Below, piece by piece: positions 8,421 to 30,768 of a DNA stretch of 64,000 nucleotides. The first letter of the stretch is position 1, and every line of letters begins with the position of its first letter. Both the position numbers and the translations under genes were made by a program. The notes beneath the pieces are model-generated. The model worked only from the letters and a program-made list of their open reading frames with translations, was not told the DNA's origin and did not search any database. The stretch is from Candidatus Binataceae bacterium (GTDB taxonomy: Bacteria; Desulfobacterota; Binatia; Binatales; Binataceae), in the NCBI GenBank assembly GCA_035650475.1, contig DASRHP010000013.1, forward strand, positions 21,755 through 85,754. The letters are read 5' to 3'.

Positions 8421-8696
8421 CTAGCGGCGATCGAAGCCGCGATGAAACCAGTCATCCGCGTCGCGCCAGCGCCAGCGATCGTCCCGGTCGTGATGCTCGC
8501 GCCATTCGCCCTGGCTCCACGCCCATCGCGGATGATGTTCGAGAAACTCGTGGCGCTCGCCCGCGCGGTAAAACTGATGCCATCCGTTGCCGTCGCGCCA
8601 GGGGCGAAAGTCGTCGCGGTCGCGCGCCATCGCGGGCGCCGCCAGCAGCGCGCCGAACAAAAGCGCCGAAAGAGAGGCTGCTACCAGGTTCTTCAT
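8421..8696 (-). CDS. small secreted W/R/D/H-rich protein (hypothetical)
   Basis: ATG at 8696 follows an AGGAGG. Signal peptide MKNLVAASLSALLFGALLAAPAMA, then a 68 aa mature part dominated by Trp/Arg/Asp/His. No family recognised. Confidence 0.45.
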   Translation of the reverse strand: MKNLVAASLSALLFGALLAAPAMARDRDDFRPWRDGNGWHQFYRAGERHEFLEHHPRWAWSQGEWREHHDRDDRWRWRDADDWFHRGFDRR

Positions 8697-8842
8697 CGCT
8701 TGTCCTCCTGTCTCTCCGGCCCTCGGTTTCTCAATCCTGCTCGCATTTGAAAGACGTGCCGGCATTCGACGGGTTACGCGGTACCCGCTTCCGGCCCGTT
8801 TACACCGGTGTTTGGCCCTTGAACCGCTCTCGAAAACCCGCC

Positions 8843-8872
8843 TTGCCAGCTGCCGCGCGCCGGTGGTAGTGT
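8843..8872 (+). promoter_or_regulatory. candidate sigma-70 promoter for the rimP-nusA-infB operon
   Basis: TTGCCA, 18 nt spacer, TAGTGT, about 240 nt upstream of rimP. Motif match only. Confidence 0.3.
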
Positions 8873-8881
8873 GGTTGGTGC

Positions 8882-8903
8882 GTGGGCTTTTGCCCACTTT
8901 TTT
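8882..8903 (+). terminator. intrinsic terminator / attenuator hairpin in the rimP-nusA leader
   Basis: GTGGGC-TTTT-GCCCAC followed by TTTTTT. Functional only on the + strand. Lies between the candidate promoter and rimP. Confidence 0.5.
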
Positions 8904-9112
8904 GTTGGTCGGCCGGCCCGATGGCGGCGGCGCTCGGGCGCAGGTTTCCCTGGACAGAGTCGGACTGCGATTGGCGCTGCGGAGCCCGCCTCGGGCGTGG
9001 CGGGGAGGAGGTGCCCCGCGGCGTCACGACGGCCGTCCCGGGAGTGAATTTTGCCGTGGGCGACGGGGGCGCGACAGACAGCCATAGCAGAGCGGTTGTA
9101 CGGCTCAATCCG

Positions 9113-9586
9113 ATGGCCGAGCGGATCATCGAGATGCTCGGGCCGCACGTCGAGCGCCAGGGCTACGAGCTGGTGTCGGTCGAGTATCACAAGGGCACGC
9201 GCAGCTCGATGCTGCGCCTGCTGGTGGATCGGCCGGGCGGAGGTATCGGGCTTGACGACCTCGAGCGCTTGAGCCCCATCCTCGGCGACCTGCTCGATGT
9301 ATACGACCCAATCGAAGGGCGCTACACGCTCGAAGTGGCTTCGCCAGGACTGAACCGGCCGCTGGTGCGGCTGGCCGACTTCGAAGCCGTACGCGGCGGA
9401 CGCGTCAGGATTAAGACGCATCACGCGCTGGAGGGGCGCAAGGCGTTTGTCGGAAGGCTCGCGGATGTAGGAGCCGACGGCGTCGAGATCGACGACGAGC
9501 CGAGCGGACGGCGGGTGCGGATCGAATTCGGCGAGATAAAGGGAGCGAATTACGAATACGATTTTGATGCAGCCGAGCGCAAATAG
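9113..9586 (+). CDS. rimP: ribosome maturation factor RimP
   Basis: Internal ATG of the 8882 ORF. MAERIIEML ... ELVSVEY ... LEVASPGLNRPL is RimP-like. First gene of the nusA-infB operon. Confidence 0.85.
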   Translation: MAERIIEMLGPHVERQGYELVSVEYHKGTRSSMLRLLVDRPGGGIGLDDLERLSPILGDLLDVYDPIEGRYTLEVASPGLNRPLVRLADFEAVRGGRVRIKTHHALEGRKAFVGRLADVGADGVEIDDEPSGRRVRIEFGEIKGANYEYDFDAAERK

Positions 9587-18055: not shown

Positions 18056-21000
18056 CTATGCGCCGGGCACGATCGCCTCGACCTCGGCGTCGCGTTGATG
18101 CTTGCCGATGACGTGGCCGCTGAGCAGCGAGTAGGCCGCCGGCACCGCGAACAGGGTCATGAACGTGGCGACCAGCAGCCCGCCGATCACGGCCAGGCCG
18201 AGCGGCGCGTTGATGCTGCCGCCCAGCGCCATCGGCAACATCCCGAGCACCATCGCCAGCGCCGTCATTATCACCGGGCGCAGACGCGTGCGCGCGCCCT
18301 CGATCGCCGCCGCCGTGGGGCTGTAGCCCTGCTCGCGCAGATCGTTGGCGAAGATGATGAGCAGGTTGCCGTTGGCGACGCCCACGCCGACCGCCATAAT
18401 CGCGCCCATCAGCGATTCCACGTTGATCGTCGTGTGGGTCAGCGCGAGCATCCACAGCACGCCCGCCAGCGCGCCAGGCACCGCGAGCAGGATGATGAAC
18501 GGTTCCGCCCACGACTGGAAGTTGGTCACCATCAGCAGGTACACGAGGATGACCGCGAGGATGAGCCCCTGTCCGAGACTCGCGAACGACTCGCGCATCG
18601 CCTGGCTCTGGCCGCGGATGACGATCTTCACGCCGGACGGCGGCTTACCCAGCGCATCGATCGCGCGCTGCACCGCCGCCGATGCGCTGCCGAGGTCGCG
18701 CCCCGATACCGAGCAGTTGACGTCGATGACGCGCTGGACGGTGTAGTGGTTGATGACCGCCGGCTCGACTTCCTGCGTGATGGTGGCGAGGTTGCCGAGA
18801 AATTGCGGTGGCGTCTGGGCGCCGGCGCCGTCCAGACGCCCCGGATTGAGCGGCGTCGCGGCCAGCGCCTGAACCGAGTTGATCATGTGCTGCGGAGTTT
18901 GCGCCAGCACGCTGTAGTTGACACCGTTTTCCGGATTCAGCCAGAAGTTCGGCGCGAGCAGCGTGTTCGAGCTGAGCGACGTCAGCAGGCTGGAGGCGAC
19001 CTGCTGCTGGGTCACGCCGAGCTCGAGCGCCTTGGCCCGATCGACCTTGACCCGCAGGGTCGGGTAGTCGAGGTGCTCGGCAATTCGCAGATCGAGCAAG
19101 CCCGGAATTTTGGCCATCCGCGCGCGCAGCCGGCGCGCCACGGCGTAGTCTTCCTCCAGGTTGTTGCCCGAGATCTGTGCGTCGATCGGCGCCGAGAGCC
19201 CGAAGTTCAGCACCTGGCTGATGATGTCGGCGGCCTGGAAGTAAACGTCAACGCCGGGAAAGCCGCGCGCCAGCACGGCGCGGATTTTGCGCTGGTACTC
19301 GCGGGTCGAATGATGGTCGGGCGTCAGCGAGATCAGGATGTCGGCGTCCTGCGGGCCGGTCGAGTCGCTTTGGTAGTAGGAGAGGTTGTAGTAGGTCGGC
19401 AGCCCGATGTTGTCGCTTATCGAGTCGAGTTCGGAAGCTGGAATCACAGTGCGAATCGCGCGCTCGATGCGATCGACGATGAGCTCGGTATGTTCGATGC
19501 GGGTGCCGGTCGGCGCGCGCACGTGCAGCCGCATCAGGCCGGCGTCAACGTCCGGGAAGAAGTCCTCGCCCACCACCAGCACCAGCGCGACCGAGGCGAG
19601 CACGATCGCGGCCACGCATCCGAGCGCGAAGCCGCGGCACGCCACGAACGCGCCGAGCGCCGCGCGGTAGCGCTCGCGGAAGTGTTCGAAGCCGGCCTCG
19701 AAGGCGGCCAGGAAGCGCCCGAGCAGGCTGCGCGGCGTCGTGTGCTCGTAATGCTCGGGCAGCAGGTAGCGCGCCATCATCGGCACCAGCGTGCGCGAGA
19801 GCAGGTACGAGGTCAGCATCGCGTACACCACCGCCAGCGCCAGCGGCGTGAACAAAAAGCGCGCCACGCCGTAGAGCAGCACCACCGGGAAGAACACGAT
19901 GCAGATCGCAAGCGTGCCGACCAGCGCCGGCGCCGCGATCTCGGCGGAGCCGTCGAGGATCGCCGCCAGCAGCGGCTTGGGCATCGCGTGGTGGCGATGG
20001 ATGTTCTCGACCGCCACGGTCGCGTCGTCCACCAGCATCCCGACCGCCAGCGCGAGTCCGCCCAGCGTCATCGTGTTGATGGTTTGTCCGGAAAGCTTGA
20101 GCGCGACTATCGCGGTCAGAATCGACAGCGGGATCGAGACGATCACCATCACCATCGAGCGCCCCGACCCCAGGAAAATGAGCACCATCAGGGCGACCAG
20201 CCCGGCCGCAATCGCGGCCTCGCGCACGACCTCCCATAGCGCGTCGCGCACGAACTTCGACTGGTCGAACGTCAGCTTGAGCTTGAGCCCGTTGGGCGCG
20301 GTGGCAAGGATCTCCGGCAGCTTGGCCTTGACCGCGCTGACCACCGCGAGCGTCGATGCTGCCGCATGCTTGACGATCGCCAGGTAGGTCGCGCGCTTGC
20401 CGTTGACCCGCACGATATTGGTCTGCACCTGGTGCGAGTAGCTCACCGGCGCGACGTCGCCGAGCAGCACCGGCGTGCCTGCGGCGACCTTGACCGGCAG
20501 ATCGTTGAATTCGGCCGGGTGGTCGGGCGTGCCGTTGAGCTCGACGTTGTACTCGCGGTTGCCGATCTTCACCGTGCCGCCGGGGATAGTGACGCTCGAT
20601 TGGTTGACTGCCGTGCTCACGTCGGCGGGCGAGAGGTTCTGGGCGTAAAGCGCCTCGGGATGCAGGTTGACCATCATCGCGCGGCTCACCCCGCCGAACG
20701 GCGCCGGCGAAGAGAGCCCCTCGATGGTGAAGAGCTTGACCCGGATGAAGTTGAGCCCATAGTCGAACAGCGCCTGCTCCGAGAGGGTGTCGCTGTAGAC
20801 GTCGAGTTGCGCCACCGGCACGTTGGCGGCATTGTAGTCGATGATGTCGGGGGCGACGGTGCCCGGCGGCATGATGTGCAGGATGCCCTCGCTCTCGGAG
20901 CTTATCTGCGCGATTGCTGCGGCGACGTCCTGGTCGGGATGAAAGTAAACGCGCAGCATCCCGATCCCATCCATCGCGGTCGATTCGATGTGCTCGATGC

Positions 21001-21229
21001 CGTTGACCTCGGTGGAGAAGGCGCGCTCGCTGATCCAGACCATCCGCCGCTCCATCATCAGCGCCGACAGCCCGGGGTAGTTCCAGATGACCTCGACCAC
21101 TGGGAGGTTGATGACCGGAAAGATGTCGGCGTTCATGCGGGTGAAGGCGAGCACACCCAGCACCAGCATCAGCAGCGCCATCACCGCGATCGAATGCGGC
21201 CGGCGTAGCGCGAAGCGGACGATCCACAT
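18056..21229 (-). CDS. efflux RND transporter permease (AcrB/HAE-type)
   Basis: 1057 aa. 12-TM architecture with two large periplasmic loops. N-terminus MWIVRFALRRP ... is typical of RND permeases. Confidence 0.88.
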   Translation of the reverse strand: MWIVRFALRRPHSIAVMALLMLVLGVLAFTRMNADIFPVINLPVVEVIWNYPGLSALMMERRMVWISERAFSTEVNGIEHIESTAMDGIGMLRVYFHPDQDVAAAIAQISSESEGILHIMPPGTVAPDIIDYNAANVPVAQLDVYSDTLSEQALFDYGLNFIRVKLFTIEGLSSPAPFGGVSRAMMVNLHPEALYAQNLSPADVSTAVNQSSVTIPGGTVKIGNREYNVELNGTPDHPAEFNDLPVKVAAGTPVLLGDVAPVSYSHQVQTNIVRVNGKRATYLAIVKHAAASTLAVVSAVKAKLPEILATAPNGLKLKLTFDQSKFVRDALWEVVREAAIAAGLVALMVLIFLGSGRSMVMVIVSIPLSILTAIVALKLSGQTINTMTLGGLALAVGMLVDDATVAVENIHRHHAMPKPLLAAILDGSAEIAAPALVGTLAICIVFFPVVLLYGVARFLFTPLALAVVYAMLTSYLLSRTLVPMMARYLLPEHYEHTTPRSLLGRFLAAFEAGFEHFRERYRAALGAFVACRGFALGCVAAIVLASVALVLVVGEDFFPDVDAGLMRLHVRAPTGTRIEHTELIVDRIERAIRTVIPASELDSISDNIGLPTYYNLSYYQSDSTGPQDADILISLTPDHHSTREYQRKIRAVLARGFPGVDVYFQAADIISQVLNFGLSAPIDAQISGNNLEEDYAVARRLRARMAKIPGLLDLRIAEHLDYPTLRVKVDRAKALELGVTQQQVASSLLTSLSSNTLLAPNFWLNPENGVNYSVLAQTPQHMINSVQALAATPLNPGRLDGAGAQTPPQFLGNLATITQEVEPAVINHYTVQRVIDVNCSVSGRDLGSASAAVQRAIDALGKPPSGVKIVIRGQSQAMRESFASLGQGLILAVILVYLLMVTNFQSWAEPFIILLAVPGALAGVLWMLALTHTTINVESLMGAIMAVGVGVANGNLLIIFANDLREQGYSPTAAAIEGARTRLRPVIMTALAMVLGMLPMALGGSINAPLGLAVIGGLLVATFMTLFAVPAAYSLLSGHVIGKHQRDAEVEAIVPGA

Positions 21230-21376
21230 AGCGGCAGGCGGCGGGCGCGGGGCGGCGGCTCAGCCCGCGCGGCCTTCGGAAGCGTTCAGATACGACATTG
21301 TTCGTGAGAATAGGGCACGCCGCCGCAGGCTGGCAAGCACCGCCTCCGGCGATGGCGCGCCCGCCGTCGACGCGGC

Positions 21377-21382
21377 TACAAT
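21377..21382 (+). promoter_or_regulatory. candidate -10 box (TACAAT) upstream of tRNA-Asp
   Basis: TACAAT lies 67 nt before the tRNA 5' end. No convincing -35. Confidence 0.2.
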
Positions 21383-21448
21383 AGAACCTTCGCCGGCGGG
21401 GCTTGGTTGCTCCGGGAGCGTGAAAATGTCAAAAAAGATGGTTCGGGC

Positions 21449-21526
21449 GGGGTCGTAGTTCAGCCCGGTTAGAACGCCGGCCTGTCACGTCGGAAGTCGT
21501 GGGTTCAAATCCCATCGGCCCCGCCA
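21449..21526 (+). tRNA. tRNA-Asp (anticodon GTC)
   Basis: Cloverleaf by manual folding: acceptor GGGGTCG/CGGCCCC, anticodon loop CTGTCAC, T-loop TTCAAAT, encoded CCA. Confidence 0.85.
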
Positions 21527-21572
21527 ATCGTTTGGGCGCCGCGCAGCGCGCGCCGCGCCGGGAGTTGACGAG

Positions 21573-22019
21573 TTGAAGCTGACCGAACAGACCAGGAGCG
21601 TGTCGCGCGAGAGCGCGCTGCGCGCGCGGCGCTGGGTGCTGATCGACGCGAGCGAGCGCCCGTTGGGCCGCGTCGCCGCGCGCGCGGCCAGCGTGCTGCG
21701 CGGCAAGCATCGCCCCGACTTCACCCCCAACCAGGACGCCGGCGACTTCGTCGTCATCATCAATGCGTCCAAGGTCAAGTTGACCGGCGACAAGGCGGAG
21801 GGCAAGCTCTACCATCGCCATACCGAGTATCCGGGCGGAGTGCGTACGACCACTGCCGGGCGTTTGCTGGAGACCCGGCCGGAGCGGCTGCTTGAGATGG
21901 CGGTGCGCGGGATGTTGCCCAAGAACCGGCTGGGGCGGCGGCTATTCACCAAGCTGAAGATCTACCGCGGCGCGGACCACCCGCACGCCGCGCAACAGCC
22001 CCAGCAGCTCAAGTTGTAG
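21573..22019 (+). CDS. rplM: 50S ribosomal protein L13
   Basis: TTG start. RWVLIDA ... GRVA ... KHRPDFTP ... GDFVVIINA ... GKLYHRHTEYPGG is the L13 pattern. Confidence 0.85.
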   Translation: MKLTEQTRSVSRESALRARRWVLIDASERPLGRVAARAASVLRGKHRPDFTPNQDAGDFVVIINASKVKLTGDKAEGKLYHRHTEYPGGVRTTTAGRLLETRPERLLEMAVRGMLPKNRLGRRLFTKLKIYRGADHPHAAQQPQQLKL

Positions 22020-22034
22020 GCGGGACCCGAGGAG

Positions 22035-22433
22035 ATGGCAGACAAGAAGGCGGAAGTCTGGGCGACTGGCAAGCGCAAGACCGCGATCGCGCGCATCCGG
22101 CTCGCCCCCGGCAGCGGCACCATCAGCGTCAACCAGCGTTCGCTCGAAGAATACTTTCCGCGCGACACCTCGCGCATGAAGATCCTCGAGCCCTTCGAGC
22201 TGACCGAAACCAAGGGCCAATACGACGTGATCGCCAGCGTCAAGGGCGGCGGTATTGGCGCCCAGGCCGAGGCGGTCCGCCACGGCATCTCGCGCGCGCT
22301 GGTGCTCGCCTCCGAGGCGCTGCGTCCAGCGCTGCGCAAGAACGGGATGCTGACGCGCGACCCGCGCGAGGTCGAGCGTAAGAAGTACGGCCGCCACAAG
22401 GCACGCAAGCGTCCGCAATACTCCAAGCGCTAA
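22035..22433 (+). CDS. rpsI: 30S ribosomal protein S9
   Basis: 132 aa. GKRKTAIARIRL ... C-terminal KYGRHKARKRPQYSKR is the S9 signature. Confidence 0.92.
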   Translation: MADKKAEVWATGKRKTAIARIRLAPGSGTISVNQRSLEEYFPRDTSRMKILEPFELTETKGQYDVIASVKGGGIGAQAEAVRHGISRALVLASEALRPALRKNGMLTRDPREVERKKYGRHKARKRPQYSKR

Positions 22434-22443
22434 ACGACGCCCG

Positions 22444-22469
22444 CCGGCGCGCCCCGCGTGGCGCGCCGG
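22444..22469 (+). terminator. GC-rich hairpin downstream of rpsI (possible terminator)
   Basis: CCGGCGCGCC-ccgcgt-GGCGCGCCGG, a perfect 10 bp stem. No U-tract. Confidence 0.3.
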
Positions 22470-22621
22470 GCGCGGCTTTCCGCCGTGCGACCGCGTTTAT
22501 CCACGCTCGTTGCGTCATGTAACTGGTTCGTACGGCGATTTAGTGCTAGGTGGTGGGGCAGAATAACGCCGGGCCGCCGACGCGCGCTCGCCATTTTCAG
22601 CGGAGGGGTTTGAGAATCGAG

Positions 22622-23680
22622 ATGGCGTCGCACAATAACAGAATCAAGCTGGCGGTGCTCGGGGCTTCAGGCTATTCGGGCATCGAAGCCGTGCGCCTGC
22701 TCGCCGGTCATCCTTTCGTCGAGCTGAGCGCGCTGACCTCGGAGCATTTCGCCGGGCGCGAGGTGGCCGAGGTTTACCGCCATCTGGCCGGAATCGACCT
22801 GCCGCCGTTCGAGGAGCTGCGCGCCGACCTTATCCGCGGCCGCGCGGAGGTCGTGGTATCGTGCCTGCCTGAGCGCGTGGGCGCGGCGCTTATCGGCGAA
22901 CTCGTGGGGGCGGGCCTCAAGGTGATCGACCTGTCGGCCGACTTCCGGCTCAAGGACCCTGCGCAGTACCGCCAGACCTATGGCGTCGATCATCCGGCGC
23001 CGGCGCTGCTCAAGGAGGCGGTTTACGGGCTCGCCGAGTTCCATCGCCGCGAGCTGCGCGAGGCGCGCCTGGTCGCGGTGCCCGGATGCTATCCGACCAG
23101 CGCGCTGCTCGGTATCCTGCCGCTCATCCGGCGCGACCTCGTCGATCCGTCGTCGATCGTGATCGACTCCAAGTCCGGCACCACCGGGGCGCGCCGCGCG
23201 CCGCAGATCGAGCAACTCTTCGCCGAAGTCAACGAGAATTTCCGCGCCTATAAAGTCGGCAACCATCGCCACGTTCCCGAGATGGAACAGGAGATCGGCG
23301 CCGCGCTCGGGCGCGAGGTGGCGGTGATGTTCGTGCCGCACCTGCTGCCGGTCACCCGCGGCATCCTGACTTCGATCTTCATGCGTCCGCGCGCCGGCAC
23401 CAGCGAGGAAGACGTGCGCGCGGCGTTCGAGGCGGCCTTCGCCAAGTCGCGCTTCGTGCGCCTGCTCAAGCCGGGCGAGCTGCCCGAGCTGAAGAACGTC
23501 CGCGCGACCAACTTCTGCGAGCTCGGCTTCGTGCTCGAACGCCGTTCGCAGACGCTGTGCGTGCTGAGCGCCATCGACAATCTCGGCAAGGGCGCGGCGG
23601 GCCAGGCGATCCAGGACCTCAACCTGATGCTGGGGCACGACGAGGCGGCGGGCCTGCTGGGCGCGGCGCCCGTTCCGTGA
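22622..23680 (+). CDS. argC: N-acetyl-gamma-glutamyl-phosphate reductase
   Basis: ATG at 22622. IKLAVLGASGYSG NAD motif and the catalytic Cys region PGCYPTS. Confidence 0.88.
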   Translation: MASHNNRIKLAVLGASGYSGIEAVRLLAGHPFVELSALTSEHFAGREVAEVYRHLAGIDLPPFEELRADLIRGRAEVVVSCLPERVGAALIGELVGAGLKVIDLSADFRLKDPAQYRQTYGVDHPAPALLKEAVYGLAEFHRRELREARLVAVPGCYPTSALLGILPLIRRDLVDPSSIVIDSKSGTTGARRAPQIEQLFAEVNENFRAYKVGNHRHVPEMEQEIGAALGREVAVMFVPHLLPVTRGILTSIFMRPRAGTSEEDVRAAFEAAFAKSRFVRLLKPGELPELKNVRATNFCELGFVLERRSQTLCVLSAIDNLGKGAAGQAIQDLNLMLGHDEAAGLLGAAPVP

Positions 23681-24459
23681 GCACGCGGCGCGGCGACGAG
23701 TCAGGCTCTGGCTTGCGCGGCGGCGCCGCGCTCGGCCGCCGCGCGCTGCTTGGCGGCGCAATCGCACTCGGCGCGGCGGCAGCCCTCAACGCCGCCGCGC
23801 GGACGGGCGCGGCTGCGCCGCCGCCCAAGGAGGCGGGCCTCAGCTACGAGGGCCTGCTCAAGGGGCAGGCTGGATTCCAGCCGCGCAAGCCGATGGCGCC
23901 GCCGCACGCCGAGCTGCCAGGCTTCCTCTCCCGTCTCCAGCTCGCGCAAAGCTACACGCATTACGCGCACGATTTCCAGCGGCTGCTGGTCGCCGAGCGC
24001 GCGCTGGCCGCGCTGCCGCGCGACAAGGCGCATCGCAACGACTACGCCGCGCTCCGCTTGCAACAGGTCGAGGCGGCCAATTCGGTGCTGCTGTACGAGT
24101 TCTATTTCCGCGGGATGGCGCCGCGGCCGGTCAAGCCGCCGGCCTACGTTATTGACAACATCAATGAGCACATGGGCTCGATGGAGAGCTGGCGCGAGGA
24201 CTTTATCGCGTGCGCGCGCGTCGCCTCGGCCTGGGCGATCCTCGCCTACGATCCCTACGATGATCGCTGGCACAACGTGCCCACGGGCAAGGGCGATGCT
24301 GGCGGGTGGGTAGGGGCAAACCCGCTGGTTGTATGCGCGATGGCCGAGAGCGCATACGCGGCCGACTACCCGATGCGGGACAGTTACGTCGAGCGCTTCA
24401 TCGAGCACATCGACTGGAATGTGGTCGCGGCGCGCTACCGCGCCGTCGACCGCCATTAG
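23677..24459 (+). CDS. Fe/Mn-superoxide-dismutase-fold protein, Tat-signal, probably inactive (metal ligands substituted)
   Basis: GTG start overlaps the argC stop (GTGA). Twin-arginine-like N-terminus GRRALLGGAIALGAAAAL. C-terminal region aligns to the SOD C-terminal domain (ASAWAIL, AMAESAYAADY vs DVWEHAYY, IDWNVVAARY). Confidence 0.5.
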   Translation: MSTRRGDESGSGLRGGAALGRRALLGGAIALGAAAALNAAARTGAAAPPPKEAGLSYEGLLKGQAGFQPRKPMAPPHAELPGFLSRLQLAQSYTHYAHDFQRLLVAERALAALPRDKAHRNDYAALRLQQVEAANSVLLYEFYFRGMAPRPVKPPAYVIDNINEHMGSMESWREDFIACARVASAWAILAYDPYDDRWHNVPTGKGDAGGWVGANPLVVCAMAESAYAADYPMRDSYVERFIEHIDWNVVAARYRAVDRH

Positions 24460-24488
24460 CGCAACCGCAGGCGACGGTCGGCCGAGCG

Positions 24489-25175
24489 CTACGAGAGGGC
24501 CTCCCGCAATGCGGCGCGCGCGAGCAGCCGCGTCGAGTCCAGAACCGGCAAGCGGGAGTCGGATTCGCTTACCAGCAGCGGTATCTCGGTGCACGCGAGT
24601 GCAACCGCGTCACAACCCTCTGCTTCAAAGGCCTCAATCACCTCTCGGAAATAAGCTAACGAAGAGGGCAGGAAGCGCGCGCGAACGAGTTCCTCGAAAA
24701 TGATCCGATTGATACCCTCGCGCCGCTCGGCACCGGGGATACGAAACTCGATGCCCGCCGCCGCGAGCTTGGCGGGATACACAGGCCCTTCCATCAGGTA
24801 CCGCGTGCCAAGGACCCCGACACGCCTGAACCCGCGGCGGACGGCTTCGCGGGCCACCACCTCGCCGATATGGATCCACGGCGCGGGCGATTGGTCGTGC
24901 ACGAGGTCTAGCCCCTGATGTACCGTGTTGTCCGGGCAGATCAAGATCTGCGCGCCCGCGCTGACCAGCCGGGCTGCCGATTGAAGCAGAAGGTCGCCCA
25001 CTTCCCGCCACCGTCCGCGCTCGATCAGGCGCTGATAATCGGCGAGCGGAAGATTGTGCAGGGAGGTCTCGGGATAGGCGTGGCGGCCCATCAGCGCCTC
25101 GCCTTCCAGACAGATTGTCCGGTAGCAGAGCGCCGCTCCCTCGCTGCTGACCGCTACGATCCCGATATGCTTCAT
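24489..25175 (-). CDS. Asp/Glu/hydantoin racemase family protein
   Basis: 228 aa. Two conserved Cys contexts (ICPDNTVH and LACTEIPLL) typical of aspartate-racemase-like enzymes. Confidence 0.7.
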   Translation of the reverse strand: MKHIGIVAVSSEGAALCYRTICLEGEALMGRHAYPETSLHNLPLADYQRLIERGRWREVGDLLLQSAARLVSAGAQILICPDNTVHQGLDLVHDQSPAPWIHIGEVVAREAVRRGFRRVGVLGTRYLMEGPVYPAKLAAAGIEFRIPGAERREGINRIIFEELVRARFLPSSLAYFREVIEAFEAEGCDAVALACTEIPLLVSESDSRLPVLDSTRLLARAALREALS

Positions 25176-27900: not shown

Positions 27901-30768
27901 GTGGCCCACCCAACCCGCGCATTCTGGAACCAGCTCCGCGCCTCAGTCGATGGCGAGGTTCGCTTCGACAACGCCACACTTGCGCTCTACGCCACCGACG
28001 CTTCGGTTTATCGCCAGGTCCCGCTGAGCGTCGTGCTCCCGCGCCACGAGGGCGACGTGATCCGCACGCTCGGGCTCGCGCGCGAAAATTCGCTCCCGCT
28101 GCTCGCCCGCGGGGGCGGCACCGCGCTCGCAGGCCAGAGCTGCAACGCGGCGCTCATCCTCGACTTCTCCAAGTACATGAACGCAATCCGGCATATCGAC
28201 GCCGGTTCGCGAGTCGCCACGGTCGAGCCGGGCGTCGTCCAGGCGCAACTCAACGCTGCGCTTGCCCGGCACGGGCTGTTTTTTGCGCCCGACCCCGCGA
28301 CGAAGAACCGATGCACTATCGGCGGGATGGTAGGCAACAACTCGTGCGGCGCGCATTCCGCCGCCTATGGCAAGACGGTGGACAACGTAGAGGCGCTCGA
28401 TGTTGTGCTGTACGACGGCACACGGCTCCATCTGGGTGCTGCGGACGAGGGCGACGTCGCGCGCGCGTCGGCGGGCGGCGGTCGCGAGGGCGAGTTGCGA
28501 ACCTCGATGCGCGCGCTGGTCGAACGTCACGCCGAGGAGATTCGCCGCCGCTATCCGAAAATTCCGCGTCGCGTCTCCGGCTACAACCTCGATGAGCTGC
28601 TGCCCGAGCGCGGCCACAATCTGGCGCGCGCGATCGTCGGCTCGGAAGGGACGCTGGCGGTAACGCTCGCCGCGACGCTCAAGCTGGTCCCGCGCCCGCG
28701 CAGCCTCGCGCTGGTGGTGCTCGGCTTTGACGATGTCTATCTCGCAGCGGACCAGGTGCCGTGGATCCTGGAGCATCGCCCGCAGGCATTGGAGGGTTTT
28801 GACCATCGTCTGCCAGACTTCGCGCGCAGCAAGGGGCTCGACGCCGCGCGGTTTCTACCCGACGGGCGTGCATTCCTGATCGTCGAGCTTGGCGCCGATG
28901 GAGACGACGAGGCGCGCGCCGCCGCCGAGCGACTGGTGGCCGACGCGCGGCGCGTGCGCGCCTGCGCGGGCGTCGCGCCCCTCTACGACGGCGGCGCGCA
29001 GCGTGCCGTATGGGGCCTGCGCGAGTCCGGGCTCGGCGCCGGCGCCCTCATTCCCGGCCATCCGCGGACCTGGCCGGGCGCCGAGGACACCGCGGTGCCG
29101 CCGGCGCGCCTCGGCGATTACCTGCGCCGCTTCGTGCGCCTGCTCGACGGCCACGGGCTCGCCGCCGCGACTTACTACGGCCATTTTGGCGAGGGATGCG
29201 TCCATTGCCGGGTCAATTTCGATTTCACCACGCCTAAGGGCGTCCAGACCTTCCGCGCCACGATGCTTGAGATCGGCGATTTGGTCGCCGAGTTCGGCGG
29301 CTCGATGTCGGGCGAGCACGGCGACGGCCTTGCGCGCTCCGAGTTGCTGCCAAAGATGTTCGGGCCGCGCCTGATCGAGGCGTTCGCCGACTTCAAGCGC
29401 GCCTTCGATCCCGACTTCCGGATGAACCCGGGCGTGATTGTGAATCCGCATCCGCTGGATTCTCATCTGCGCGTGACTCCGGGCTACCGTCCGGCGCCGG
29501 TGGAGACCCATTTCGACTTCATCGCCGAGGGTGGTCTGGCGGGGGCCGCGCTCAAGTGTGTCGGGATCGGTAAATGCCGCAAGACCGACGCCGGCACGAT
29601 GTGCCCGTCGTACATGGCGACGCGCGAGGAGATGCACTCGACGCGCGGGCGGGCCCATCTGCTGTGGGAGGCGCTGAGCGGCGGCAGGCTGCTTGAAGGC
29701 AGGGCGGGGGACAGGGCGATTAAAGAAGCGCTTGAACTTTGCCTCTCGTGTAAAGGGTGCAAGAGCGAATGCCCGGCGGCGGTCGATATTGCCGCCTACA
29801 AGGCCGAATTCTTCGCCCGCTACTACGCCCGCAACCGTCGCCCGCTCGCTGTGCGATTCTTCGCGCGTATCCACGAGGTCGCCCGCGCCGGCGCTGCCAT
29901 CCCCGCGCTGGCTAACGCGCTTGGGCATGCGCCGGCGCTCGGCGAGATCGTGCGGGCGCTGCTAAAAATTCATCCCGAGCGTGAACTTCCGCGCTTCGCG
30001 GCGCAGAGCTTTCGTTCATGGTTCGCGGCGCGCGGGCGACGCGACGGATCGGCTGCGCCCGAGGTCGTACTGTTCGCCGACACCTTCAACAACTTCTTCG
30101 AACCCGACGTAGCTATCGCGGCCGTGGAGGTCCTCGAGCGCGCCGGCTTCACCGTGGTCGTGCCGCCGCGCGATTTGTGCTGCGGGCGCCCGCTGTACGA
30201 CGCTGGGATGTTCGCGCGGGCGCGCTGGCGGCTCGAGCAGGTGATGAAGACGCTCGCGCCTTACGTCGAGCGCGGCGCGGCGGTGGTCGGGCTCGAACCG
30301 AGCTGCATCCTCACCTTCCGCGACGAGTTGCCGAGCCTTTTCCCGGCCGACGCGCGCGCCGCGGCGCTGGCCAAGCGCGCGATGCTGCTCGATGAGTTCC
30401 TCGTGCGCGAGGCGCCCAGTTATGTCCCGCCCGCGCTCGCCCGCCGTGCGCTCGTTCACGGCCATTGCCATCAGAAGTCTCTTGCCGGCATGCGGTCCGA
30501 GATGGCCATCCTCGGCCGCGTCGGGGGGCTGGGTGCGCAGGAGCTCGACGCCGGATGTTGCGGGATGGCGGGCGCGTTCGGCTACGGCGCCGAGCGCTTC
30601 GAGCTCTCGCGCGTGATCGGCGAGCGCGTGCTGCTGCCGGCGGTGCGCGCGAGCGCGCCCGATACGCTGGTGGTCGCCGACGGCTTCGCCTGCCGCCAGC
30701 AGATCCGCCATCTCTGCCCCGGCCGCCAGCCGCTCCATCTGGCGCAACTGCTCAACCTCAAGGCCTGA
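27901..30768 (+). CDS. FAD-binding (GlcD-like) plus Fe-S/CCG (GlcF-like) fusion oxidoreductase, D-lactate/glycolate dehydrogenase-like
   Basis: 955 aa. N-terminal FAD PCMH domain, C-terminal 4Fe-4S CxxCxxC motif (CLSCKGCKSEC) and CCG domains. GTG start. Confidence 0.8.
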   Translation: MAHPTRAFWNQLRASVDGEVRFDNATLALYATDASVYRQVPLSVVLPRHEGDVIRTLGLARENSLPLLARGGGTALAGQSCNAALILDFSKYMNAIRHIDAGSRVATVEPGVVQAQLNAALARHGLFFAPDPATKNRCTIGGMVGNNSCGAHSAAYGKTVDNVEALDVVLYDGTRLHLGAADEGDVARASAGGGREGELRTSMRALVERHAEEIRRRYPKIPRRVSGYNLDELLPERGHNLARAIVGSEGTLAVTLAATLKLVPRPRSLALVVLGFDDVYLAADQVPWILEHRPQALEGFDHRLPDFARSKGLDAARFLPDGRAFLIVELGADGDDEARAAAERLVADARRVRACAGVAPLYDGGAQRAVWGLRESGLGAGALIPGHPRTWPGAEDTAVPPARLGDYLRRFVRLLDGHGLAAATYYGHFGEGCVHCRVNFDFTTPKGVQTFRATMLEIGDLVAEFGGSMSGEHGDGLARSELLPKMFGPRLIEAFADFKRAFDPDFRMNPGVIVNPHPLDSHLRVTPGYRPAPVETHFDFIAEGGLAGAALKCVGIGKCRKTDAGTMCPSYMATREEMHSTRGRAHLLWEALSGGRLLEGRAGDRAIKEALELCLSCKGCKSECPAAVDIAAYKAEFFARYYARNRRPLAVRFFARIHEVARAGAAIPALANALGHAPALGEIVRALLKIHPERELPRFAAQSFRSWFAARGRRDGSAAPEVVLFADTFNNFFEPDVAIAAVEVLERAGFTVVVPPRDLCCGRPLYDAGMFARARWRLEQVMKTLAPYVERGAAVVGLEPSCILTFRDELPSLFPADARAAALAKRAMLLDEFLVREAPSYVPPALARRALVHGHCHQKSLAGMRSEMAILGRVGGLGAQELDAGCCGMAGAFGYGAERFELSRVIGERVLLPAVRASAPDTLVVADGFACRQQIRHLCPGRQPLHLAQLLNLKA

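Follow-up and report, generated by a model that had tools for sequence, protein, structure and literature searches.

We analysed a 64,000-nucleotide stretch (the window) of contig DASRHP010000013.1 from a Candidatus Binataceae bacterium assembly (GCA_035650475.1), in which the gene at the end of an rplM-rpsI-argC string encodes a 260-residue protein combining a putative twin-arginine translocation (Tat) signal with the predicted fold of the iron/manganese superoxide dismutases (SODs; this family, SodFMs). On our alignments, none of the four metal ligands of these enzymes survives in this SOD-like protein. A preliminary description made from the sequence of the window had reported the open reading frame and the overlap of its GTG start codon with the argC stop. 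The overlap can be read directly as GTGA, and the start is confirmed by a database protein (P0001) that is identical across 260/260 residues, begins at the same codon and is labelled 'Fe-Mn family superoxide dismutase [Candidatus Binataceae bacterium]'. The product of argC scores 393 bits against TIGR01850 (cut-off 233.6), and orthologues of 351-352 residues point to its ATG start at 22622 (Table 1).

Table 1. Coordinates of the SOD-like gene, its parts and the genes preceding it in the window.
Feature	Position	Strand	Evidence
Coding sequence of the SOD-like protein (predicted Tat signal and SodFM fold, no metal ligands on alignment); GTG start at 23677, stop ending at 24459	23677..24459	+	Open reading frame, P0001, Pfam Sod_Fe_C, AlphaFold2/Foldseek
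GTGA, GTG start on the TGA stop of argC	23677..23680	+	Direct reading; recurs in other loci
Putative twin-arginine signal peptide, residues 1-47	23677..23817	+	RR at residues 21-22 (23737-23742); h-region ALLGGAIALGAAAALNAAA; cleavage site approximate
Mature N-terminus PPKExGLSxEGLLKGxxGFQPRxP, residues 48-72, family-specific	23818..23892	+	Conservation in alignment
Predicted N-terminal helical hairpin, helices 86-112 and 117-145	23932..24111	+	AlphaFold2 model, hhalign, MAFFT
Ligand-1 equivalent S92	23950-23952	+	hhalign column mapping; in the N-terminal hairpin with H95 (H30 equivalent)
Ligand-2 equivalent Y140	24094-24096	+	hhalign and MAFFT against SodB and ChrC
C-terminal alpha/beta domain (Sod_Fe_C)	24142..24447	+	Pfam, residues 158-253; HMMER against 1coj and 8avm
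Family signature DPYDDRWH, residues 192-199, beta1-beta2 hairpin	24250..24273	+	D192-W198 invariant
Ligand-3 equivalent A221	24337-24339	+	hhalign mapping
Ligand-4 equivalent S225	24349-24351	+	hhalign mapping
argC (N-acetyl-gamma-glutamyl-phosphate reductase)	22622..23680	+	TIGR01850; start from orthologue lengths
rplM-rpsI, head of the rplM-rpsI-argC-SOD-like string	21573..22433	+	Open reading frames, Pfam labels on syntenic loci, synteny table

Similarity to the SOD family, which the preliminary description had proposed, is significant by Pfam, by a search of Protein Data Bank (PDB) sequences and by structure prediction. Pfam Sod_Fe_C matches residues 158-253 with 48.5 bits (cut-off 20.9, E 9.7e-13), whereas Sod_Fe_N gives no match at E <= 1, so that only the C-terminal of the two Pfam profiles recognizes the protein. 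The closest PDB chain by sequence is the Aquifex Fe-SOD 1coj (HMMER, E 3.5e-12), and the three motif pairings with SODs proposed earlier agree with the HMMER alignments. An AlphaFold2 model built from 99 family sequences has a mean predicted local distance difference test score (pLDDT) of 81.6, rising above 90 over residues 71-260, and in Foldseek it matches MnSOD and FeSOD structures with target-normalised template modelling scores of up to 0.90 (MnSODs) and root-mean-square deviations of about 2 A over about 197 columns. The similarity had been thought to be confined to the C-terminal 150 residues, but the structural match extends over about 200 columns, the N-terminal hairpin included; the model thus predicts a complete two-domain SodFM fold, with an N-terminal helical hairpin and a C-terminal alpha/beta domain. 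The protein therefore shares with the canonical SodFM1-5 groups the two-domain fold, and with their tetrameric types the long N-terminal helices, but differs in its four replaced ligands, its outer-sphere changes and its lack of a Sod_Fe_N match.

A survey of SodFMs across the tree of life describes the four ligands as universally conserved (Sendra et al. 2023, PMC10172142). We mapped their positions by profile-profile alignment (hhalign) of the family against 38 ligand-complete SodFMs, which gave a probability of 100 and an E-value of 4e-52. Ligand 1 (H26 of E. coli FeSOD) corresponds to S92, an assignment with which later MAFFT alignments agree, and ligands 2 (H73), 3 (D156) and 4 (H160) correspond to Y140, A221 and S225, respectively, in hhalign, in HMMER alignments to PDB chains and in two independent MAFFT alignments. 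The profile-profile alignment thus finds S92, Y140, A221 and S225 where His or Asp would stand in a canonical enzyme. The earlier assignment of Ala to the ligand Asp and of Ser to the last His holds in all three types of alignment, but the first two positions had been misread: the His of the 'THY' motif, taken for a retained ligand, is H95, which falls on the second-sphere H30 and lacks conservation across the family (consensus AxYR), and at the second ligand position it is Tyr140, not the neighbouring Glu141, that takes the place of His. For helix 1, an early MAFFT alignment with SodB had opened a gap of four residues and set Y96 against Y34; this placement was discarded in favour of the hhalign one, which has S92 at H26. 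Around the former site, the Trp158 position is Ala, E159 is present and is variable across the family, and no His or Gln stands at the aligned outer-sphere position of the window protein, although the alignment in that loop is uncertain.

The window protein belongs to a family with hallmarks that ordinary SODs do not have: the motifs PPKExGLSxEGLLKGxxGFQPR, EHMGSxxSWREDFxAC, YDPYDDRWH, DAGGWxGxNPLVVC and a C-terminal RYRAVDRH, all of which it carries. In the mature N-terminus, P50, E52, G54, E58-L61 and G66-R70 are conserved in at least 90% of members, and D192, P193, Y194, D195, D196, R197 and W198 of the hairpin signature are invariant. A word-indexed search (E <= 0.001) returned 524 homologues, the best 120 of which, all 55-100% identical to the window protein, serve for the close-homologue counts below. 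Among 1.84 billion cluster representatives, searched exhaustively, only a handful of full-length clusters exceed about 45% identity; the next representatives are at about 33%, and nearly all of them read H-H-D-H at the ligand positions. Scanning one genome for each of 185,579 species with two peptide patterns, one of them YDPYDDRW, yielded 41 family loci, every one in a metagenome-assembled genome (MAG) and none in a cultured organism; source labels are mostly Binatia, Binataceae or 'delta proteobacterium', with a few Alpha-, Gamma- or unclassified Proteobacteria. Literature searches for Tat-signal or ligand-less bacterial SodFMs turned up no description of this DPYDDRW family or of any ligand-less bacterial SodFM lineage, and a Sinorhizobium 'SodM-like' candidate (S. 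meliloti, PMC3462710) was set aside, as that report concerns a ChrB-domain protein, which is no relative. The DPYDDRW family is thus an uncharacterised one from uncultured soil bacteria.

The nearest characterised relative of the window protein is ChrC (28% identity over 190 residues, E 4e-16; E. coli SodB, E 0.026), and tblastn matches on plasmids are the SOD genes of chrB-chrA-chrC(-chrE)-chrF operons on Cupriavidus metallidurans pMOL28 and others. The ChrC encoded by TnOtChr of O. tritici has been shown to be an Fe-SOD (PMC4779226). The window protein's family shares with ChrC the motif ANSxxLHExYF and the loss of Tyr34. ChrC of pMOL28 differs in being a 197-residue protein with H-H-D-H ligands and no signal peptide, whereas the window protein has no ligands, a putative Tat signal, a conserved 25-residue N-terminal extension and the DPYDDRWH hairpin, and no chr genes lie within its 64 kb. 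In a neighbour-joining (NJ) tree, the family comes out as a single clade in 100/100 bootstrap replicates, and its sister group consists of Tat-signal SodFMs with complete ligands. Such proteins (for example P0134, P0135, P0137, P0157 and P0169) resemble the family in pairing an RRxFL signal with a SodFM domain and are 33-36% identical, but they keep H-H-D-H and the YEH motif and have neither the PPKE...GFQPR extension nor DPYDDRWH; the genomic context of P0135, with a BrxL-type neighbour gene, was uninformative. These comparisons point to descent of the family from the ChrC-type SODs of chromate-resistance clusters, the most informative context for the gene and one absent from the preliminary description.

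The ligand residues of all the locus-derived proteins, including divergent chr-linked members, were read from an L-INS-i alignment that also held SodB, ChrC and outgroups, and they divide the family into two branches. The ligand-complete branch (NJ support 98/100) has His at ligand 1 in 11 loci and the full H-H-D-H set in 9 of these, the exceptions being L044 (H-H-D-R) and L046 (H-H-D-D); the chr-linked L038 (N-H-D-H) clusters with it. In the ligand-less branch, which includes the window protein, ligand 1 is Asn, Ser, Thr, Ile or Ala, and never His in the sampled members, and the other positions vary. Degenerate sets occur in at least five NJ clades (S,Y,A,S / S,H,A,R; T,H,A,Y; A,H,A,E / I,Y,A,H; T,H,N,D; I,H,A,A). 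Among the best 120 homologues, His is kept at ligand 2 in 107, Asp at ligand 3 in 83 and His at ligand 4 in 71. Outside the family, degenerate ligands were also seen in P0181 (Y,V,D,R), P0241 (L,F,N,N), P0209 (I,H,D,S, with an RR motif) and P0136 (N,G,D,M), so ligand loss may have occurred in further bacterial SodFM lineages.

Gene context largely follows the same division. Eight loci are chr-linked, with chrA and/or DUF1259 within 8 kb and chrB as well in four (Pfam ChrB_N/ChrB_C; Chromate_transp, 1e-75 to 1e-79; DUF1259, about 1e-75). Seven of the eight SOD-like genes (six of the eleven with His at ligand 1, plus L038) follow chr genes of the same strand, directly adjacent at 24-180 nt in six, and L033 is divergent. 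The ligand-complete branch thus mostly adjoins chrB, chrA and DUF1259 genes, as chrC does. DUF1259 corresponds to the LppY/LpqO lipoprotein family, to which ChrL of Arthrobacter FB24 belongs. ChrL is induced by chromate, and its gene counts among three accessory genes that lower resistance when deleted (PMC2751784). In the classical C. metallidurans chr cluster on pMOL28, a DUF1259 gene lies about 3 kb downstream of chrC (L052, 8425-9351), so the association of SOD-like, DUF1259 and chrA genes seen in the MAG loci is also present on a well-studied plasmid. Neither chrA, chrB nor DUF1259 was found in the 64-kb window. Two further neighbours were observed. A PF04116 fatty-acid hydroxylase gene directly follows the SOD-like gene in three chr-linked loci (L032, 8706-9518; L046, 9057-9914; L041, about 8683-9432) and recurs in a different context about 1.4 kb upstream in rnhB-linked loci (L003, 3736-4563). 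In a Gammaproteobacteria MAG (L001, 4480-6762, equivalent to L024), the SOD-like gene (S,H,D,D) and a GDT1-family (UPF0016) gene are transcribed divergently, and next to the latter stand a ModE-like regulator and a molybdate-type ABC transporter, another oxyanion and metal context.

Several residues around the former pocket have not drifted: Y96, F100, N135, E141, W186 and N215 are invariant and C220 is nearly so. This conservation would fit a protein that is still a metalloenzyme, an SOD or a new one, with a site rebuilt near the old pocket from residues such as Tyr140, His95, His98, Asp99, Glu224 and Cys220, and the same reading draws on the H-D-H triad, intact in 64 of the best 120 homologues (53%), and on Tat export, which is typical for proteins that acquire a cofactor in the cytoplasm. 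We nevertheless regard a surviving metalloenzyme as unlikely. The residues at the old ligand positions differ even between the closest orthologues (S,Y,A,S; S,Y,A,G; S,H,A,R), H95 is not conserved, and many of the invariant pocket residues are common to ChrC-like SODs and lie at the domain interface, where a structural role explains them. A disulfide or metal site formed by C179 and C220 was considered and rejected, as the two cysteines do not strictly co-vary.

Selection on the gene was measured as the ratio of nonsynonymous to synonymous substitution rates (dN/dS). Against the closest orthologue in the DNA comparison (L054; 86% amino-acid identity, ligand positions S,Y,A,G), dN/dS is 0.16 for the whole gene (95% bootstrap confidence interval 0.106-0.245) and 0.11 for the mature domain, residues 48-260 (0.06-0.18). 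Across genome pairs the whole-gene value ranges over 0.16-0.43, compared with 0.045-0.12 for argC in the same pairs, and the SOD-like protein is 62-68% identical where the products of argC, the citE-like gene and the alcohol dehydrogenase gene reach 86-91%. This faster evolution is consistent with a lost catalytic constraint; fast divergence is also usual for envelope proteins. Two syntenic argC-linked loci (L043, 8278-8724; L045, 8001-8402) hold only partial matches, with no intact DPYDDRW frame, and these defects could reflect real pseudogenisation or frameshifts from assembly or sequencing. Together, the rapid divergence, the raised dN/dS relative to argC and the two broken frames are what would be expected of a decaying relic, a former SOD gene drifting towards a pseudogene and kept by its position in the argC operon. 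We hold this to be quite improbable: a mature-domain dN/dS of 0.11 for a pair of orthologues with no ligand left in either indicates that selection persisted after all ligands were lost and that this is not a dying gene, the frame is intact and full length with every family motif kept, and the defects in the two loci may be assembly or sequencing errors.

The gene follows argC in 20 of the 41 species-level loci and on extra metagenomic contigs, within a block ordered as a resistance-nodulation-division (RND) pump, rplM-rpsI-argC-SOD-like, a citE-like gene, the alcohol dehydrogenase gene and an FAD-oxidase gene. The 4-nt GTGA overlap recurs in most argC-linked loci, among them L004, L005, L054, L055 and L056, and the start and the stop coincide in others; the more divergent L022, L023 and L025 have a gap of 7-8 nt. 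The tight junction is kept while argC identity falls from 96% to 73%, and in L022 and L025 it persists despite broken flanking synteny. A 46%-identical homologue (P0122; T,H,D,Q; L058, 1107-3002) also lies downstream of rpsI-argC, with a 63-nt gap, so the linkage is older than the close Binataceae clade. The other 21 loci comprise the eight that are chr-linked, five beside rnhB/PDH, one beside GDT1/modE and the rest in varied settings. No promoter- or terminator-like site was found on the + strand over 21300-24800, which covers the argC junction, in a scan limited to a sigma-70-type consensus, which is weak in a GC-rich genome.

From the overlap, the preliminary description had concluded that the gene is co-translated with an arginine biosynthesis gene. 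The overlap is real and the adjacency is conserved throughout the argC-linked clade, but the functional implication goes too far, with 21 of 41 loci elsewhere. A joint role with argC in arginine or ornithine metabolism could be argued from the persistence of the tight junction, even across broken synteny, and from the position of P0122, but we judge it highly improbable, as the protein is predicted to be periplasmic and the argC enzyme is cytoplasmic, as more than half of the family loci lie away from argC, and as the ancestry and the ligand-complete branch point to chromate-resistance clusters. We read the overlap instead as translational coupling that provides constitutive expression in one lineage. 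A substrate that a protein in the periplasm and a reductase in the cytoplasm could share is not obvious, and the distribution of the loci indicates co-expression in a lineage-specific operon rather than a functional link to arginine synthesis.

Around this junction, the syntenic block extends in the window from 18056-21229 (-) to 27901-30768 (+), is found in about 20 Binatia MAGs and includes a citE/HpcH-like lyase, a Zn-dependent alcohol dehydrogenase and a 955-residue FAD-oxidase with Fe-S/CCG domains. Immediately before rplM comes a tRNA-Asp (GTC) gene, at 21449-21526 (+). An Asp/Glu racemase gene (PF01177; 24489-25175, -) converges on the SOD-like gene, ending 30 nt past its stop; it is present in L056, and tblastn gave no match in the other argC-syntenic loci, so that it looks like a lineage-specific insertion between the SOD-like and citE-like genes.

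The twin-arginine-like signal noted in the preliminary description is well supported by conservation. R21 and R22 occur without exception in the aligned homologues (99/99); in the window protein they lie in GRRALL (residues 20-25), which is followed by an Ala/Leu/Gly-rich hydrophobic h-region of about 20 residues (mean Kyte-Doolittle 1.43) and an Ala-rich segment before the conserved PPKE. From RR to the start of the conserved mature N-terminus the median distance is 29 residues, and AlphaFold2 places a low-pLDDT helix at residues 21-41. We infer from these sequence features that the protein is exported to the periplasm by the Tat pathway. With catalysis apparently lost and RR the most strictly conserved feature, the protein might serve as a Tat escort, its signal carrying across a partner that has none, for instance an active SodFM paralogue, by hitch-hiking, which is an established mechanism; SodFMs, moreover, are obligate oligomers. 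This role appears slightly less likely than a surviving metalloenzyme: the positions that form the canonical dimer interface (E159, Y163, the Ser of GSGW and R167) are variable or replaced, and no partner gene is consistently adjacent.

Starting from the results above on fold, ligands, ancestry, gene context and selection, the explanation that we consider probable is a periplasmic, non-catalytic, SOD-derived binding protein, exported by Tat and descended from a ChrC-like ancestor. The preliminary description had suggested a secreted SOD-derived pseudoenzyme or repurposed binding protein, and the ligand substitutions, the dN/dS of 0.11 and the invariant RR favour that proposal, although details of its ligand table were wrong. 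The ancestor would have been a ChrC-type, Tat-exported SOD encoded in a chrB-chrA-DUF1259(chrL) cluster, in or beside which most of the ligand-complete branch still resides. The branch of the window gene would then have left the chr context and lost the axial His, followed by the other ligands independently in several lineages. With the metal site lost and the fold kept, the window protein would bind no metal and superoxide dismutation would not be possible. Its retained role would most likely be to bind a partner protein or small ligand through the N-terminal segment and the acidic DPYDDRWH hairpin; purifying selection and the conservation that lies outside the ligand set, in the signal, the fold, the N-terminal segment and the hairpin, argue for a non-catalytic binding role of this kind. 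The Tat signal would have been inherited from an ancestor that bound metal and folded on the cytoplasmic side. The Binataceae gene, last in the rplM-rpsI-argC-SOD-like string and translationally coupled to argC, would be expressed constitutively, replacing an ancestral expression presumably regulated by ChrB.

Several observations weigh against this binding-protein explanation. The H-D-H triad retained in so many close homologues means that part of the family may still bind metal, that the shared function may be metal-related and that the window protein may be an outlier. The ligand-less branch forms a single clade in only 27/100 NJ replicates, a weak monophyly, so that the order of the losses is tentative and ligand 1 may have been lost once or more often. 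Clustering of the open reading frames around the 25 non-argC loci recovered the chr cluster of the ligand-complete branch, but for the ligand-less branch it found lineage-level synteny and no conserved partner gene. The mature N-terminal segment, common to both branches and absent from ChrC and SodB, is modelled at low confidence (pLDDT 50-58), although this is as expected if the segment orders only upon binding.

Tat-exported Fe/Mn SODs, ChrC, pseudoenzymes in general and organellar SodFM-fold non-enzymes are already known. Among the last, the mitoribosomal proteins mS42 and mS43 and the chloroplast proteins PAP4 and PAP9, associated with the plastid-encoded RNA polymerase (PEP), likewise reuse the SodFM fold as a structural or binding subunit, and PAP4 chains are among our PDB sequence matches; they differ in belonging to eukaryotic organellar complexes, in having no Tat signal and in showing no specific relationship to the window protein (E about 1e-5). 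E. coli SufI/FtsP, of an unrelated fold and family, offers a parallel of mechanism only: its multicopper oxidase fold no longer has metal ligands, yet the protein continues to pass through Tat and plays a non-catalytic periplasmic role in cell division. A bolder version of our explanation, which we put forward tentatively and would not quite back, is that the DPYDDRW proteins are the first bacterial SodFM pseudoenzyme family. A second, metal-independent function of a periplasmic ChrC-like protein, perhaps binding a partner such as the DUF1259/ChrL lipoprotein or, in defence against envelope stress, an oxyanion or a metal species, would have outlived the catalytic site, leaving the series H-H-D-H, N-H-D-H and S-Y-A-S in living genomes and a Tat signal that is a relic, as in SufI/FtsP.

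The pipeline label 'Fe-Mn family superoxide dismutase' is almost certainly wrong for the ligand-less branch, and the oxidative-stress capacity inferred for Binatia and related soil MAGs would be inflated as a result. The DPYDDRW family provides a natural counter-example to the universal conservation of SodFM ligands (PMC10172142). In the ligand-complete branch, an SOD-like protein predicted to reach the periplasm by Tat is encoded beside chrA and the gene of the little-understood ChrL/DUF1259 protein, which suggests a periplasmic arm of chromate defence. With intermediate states present in living lineages, the family offers a tractable system for studying how a metalloenzyme fold is repurposed after catalysis is lost.

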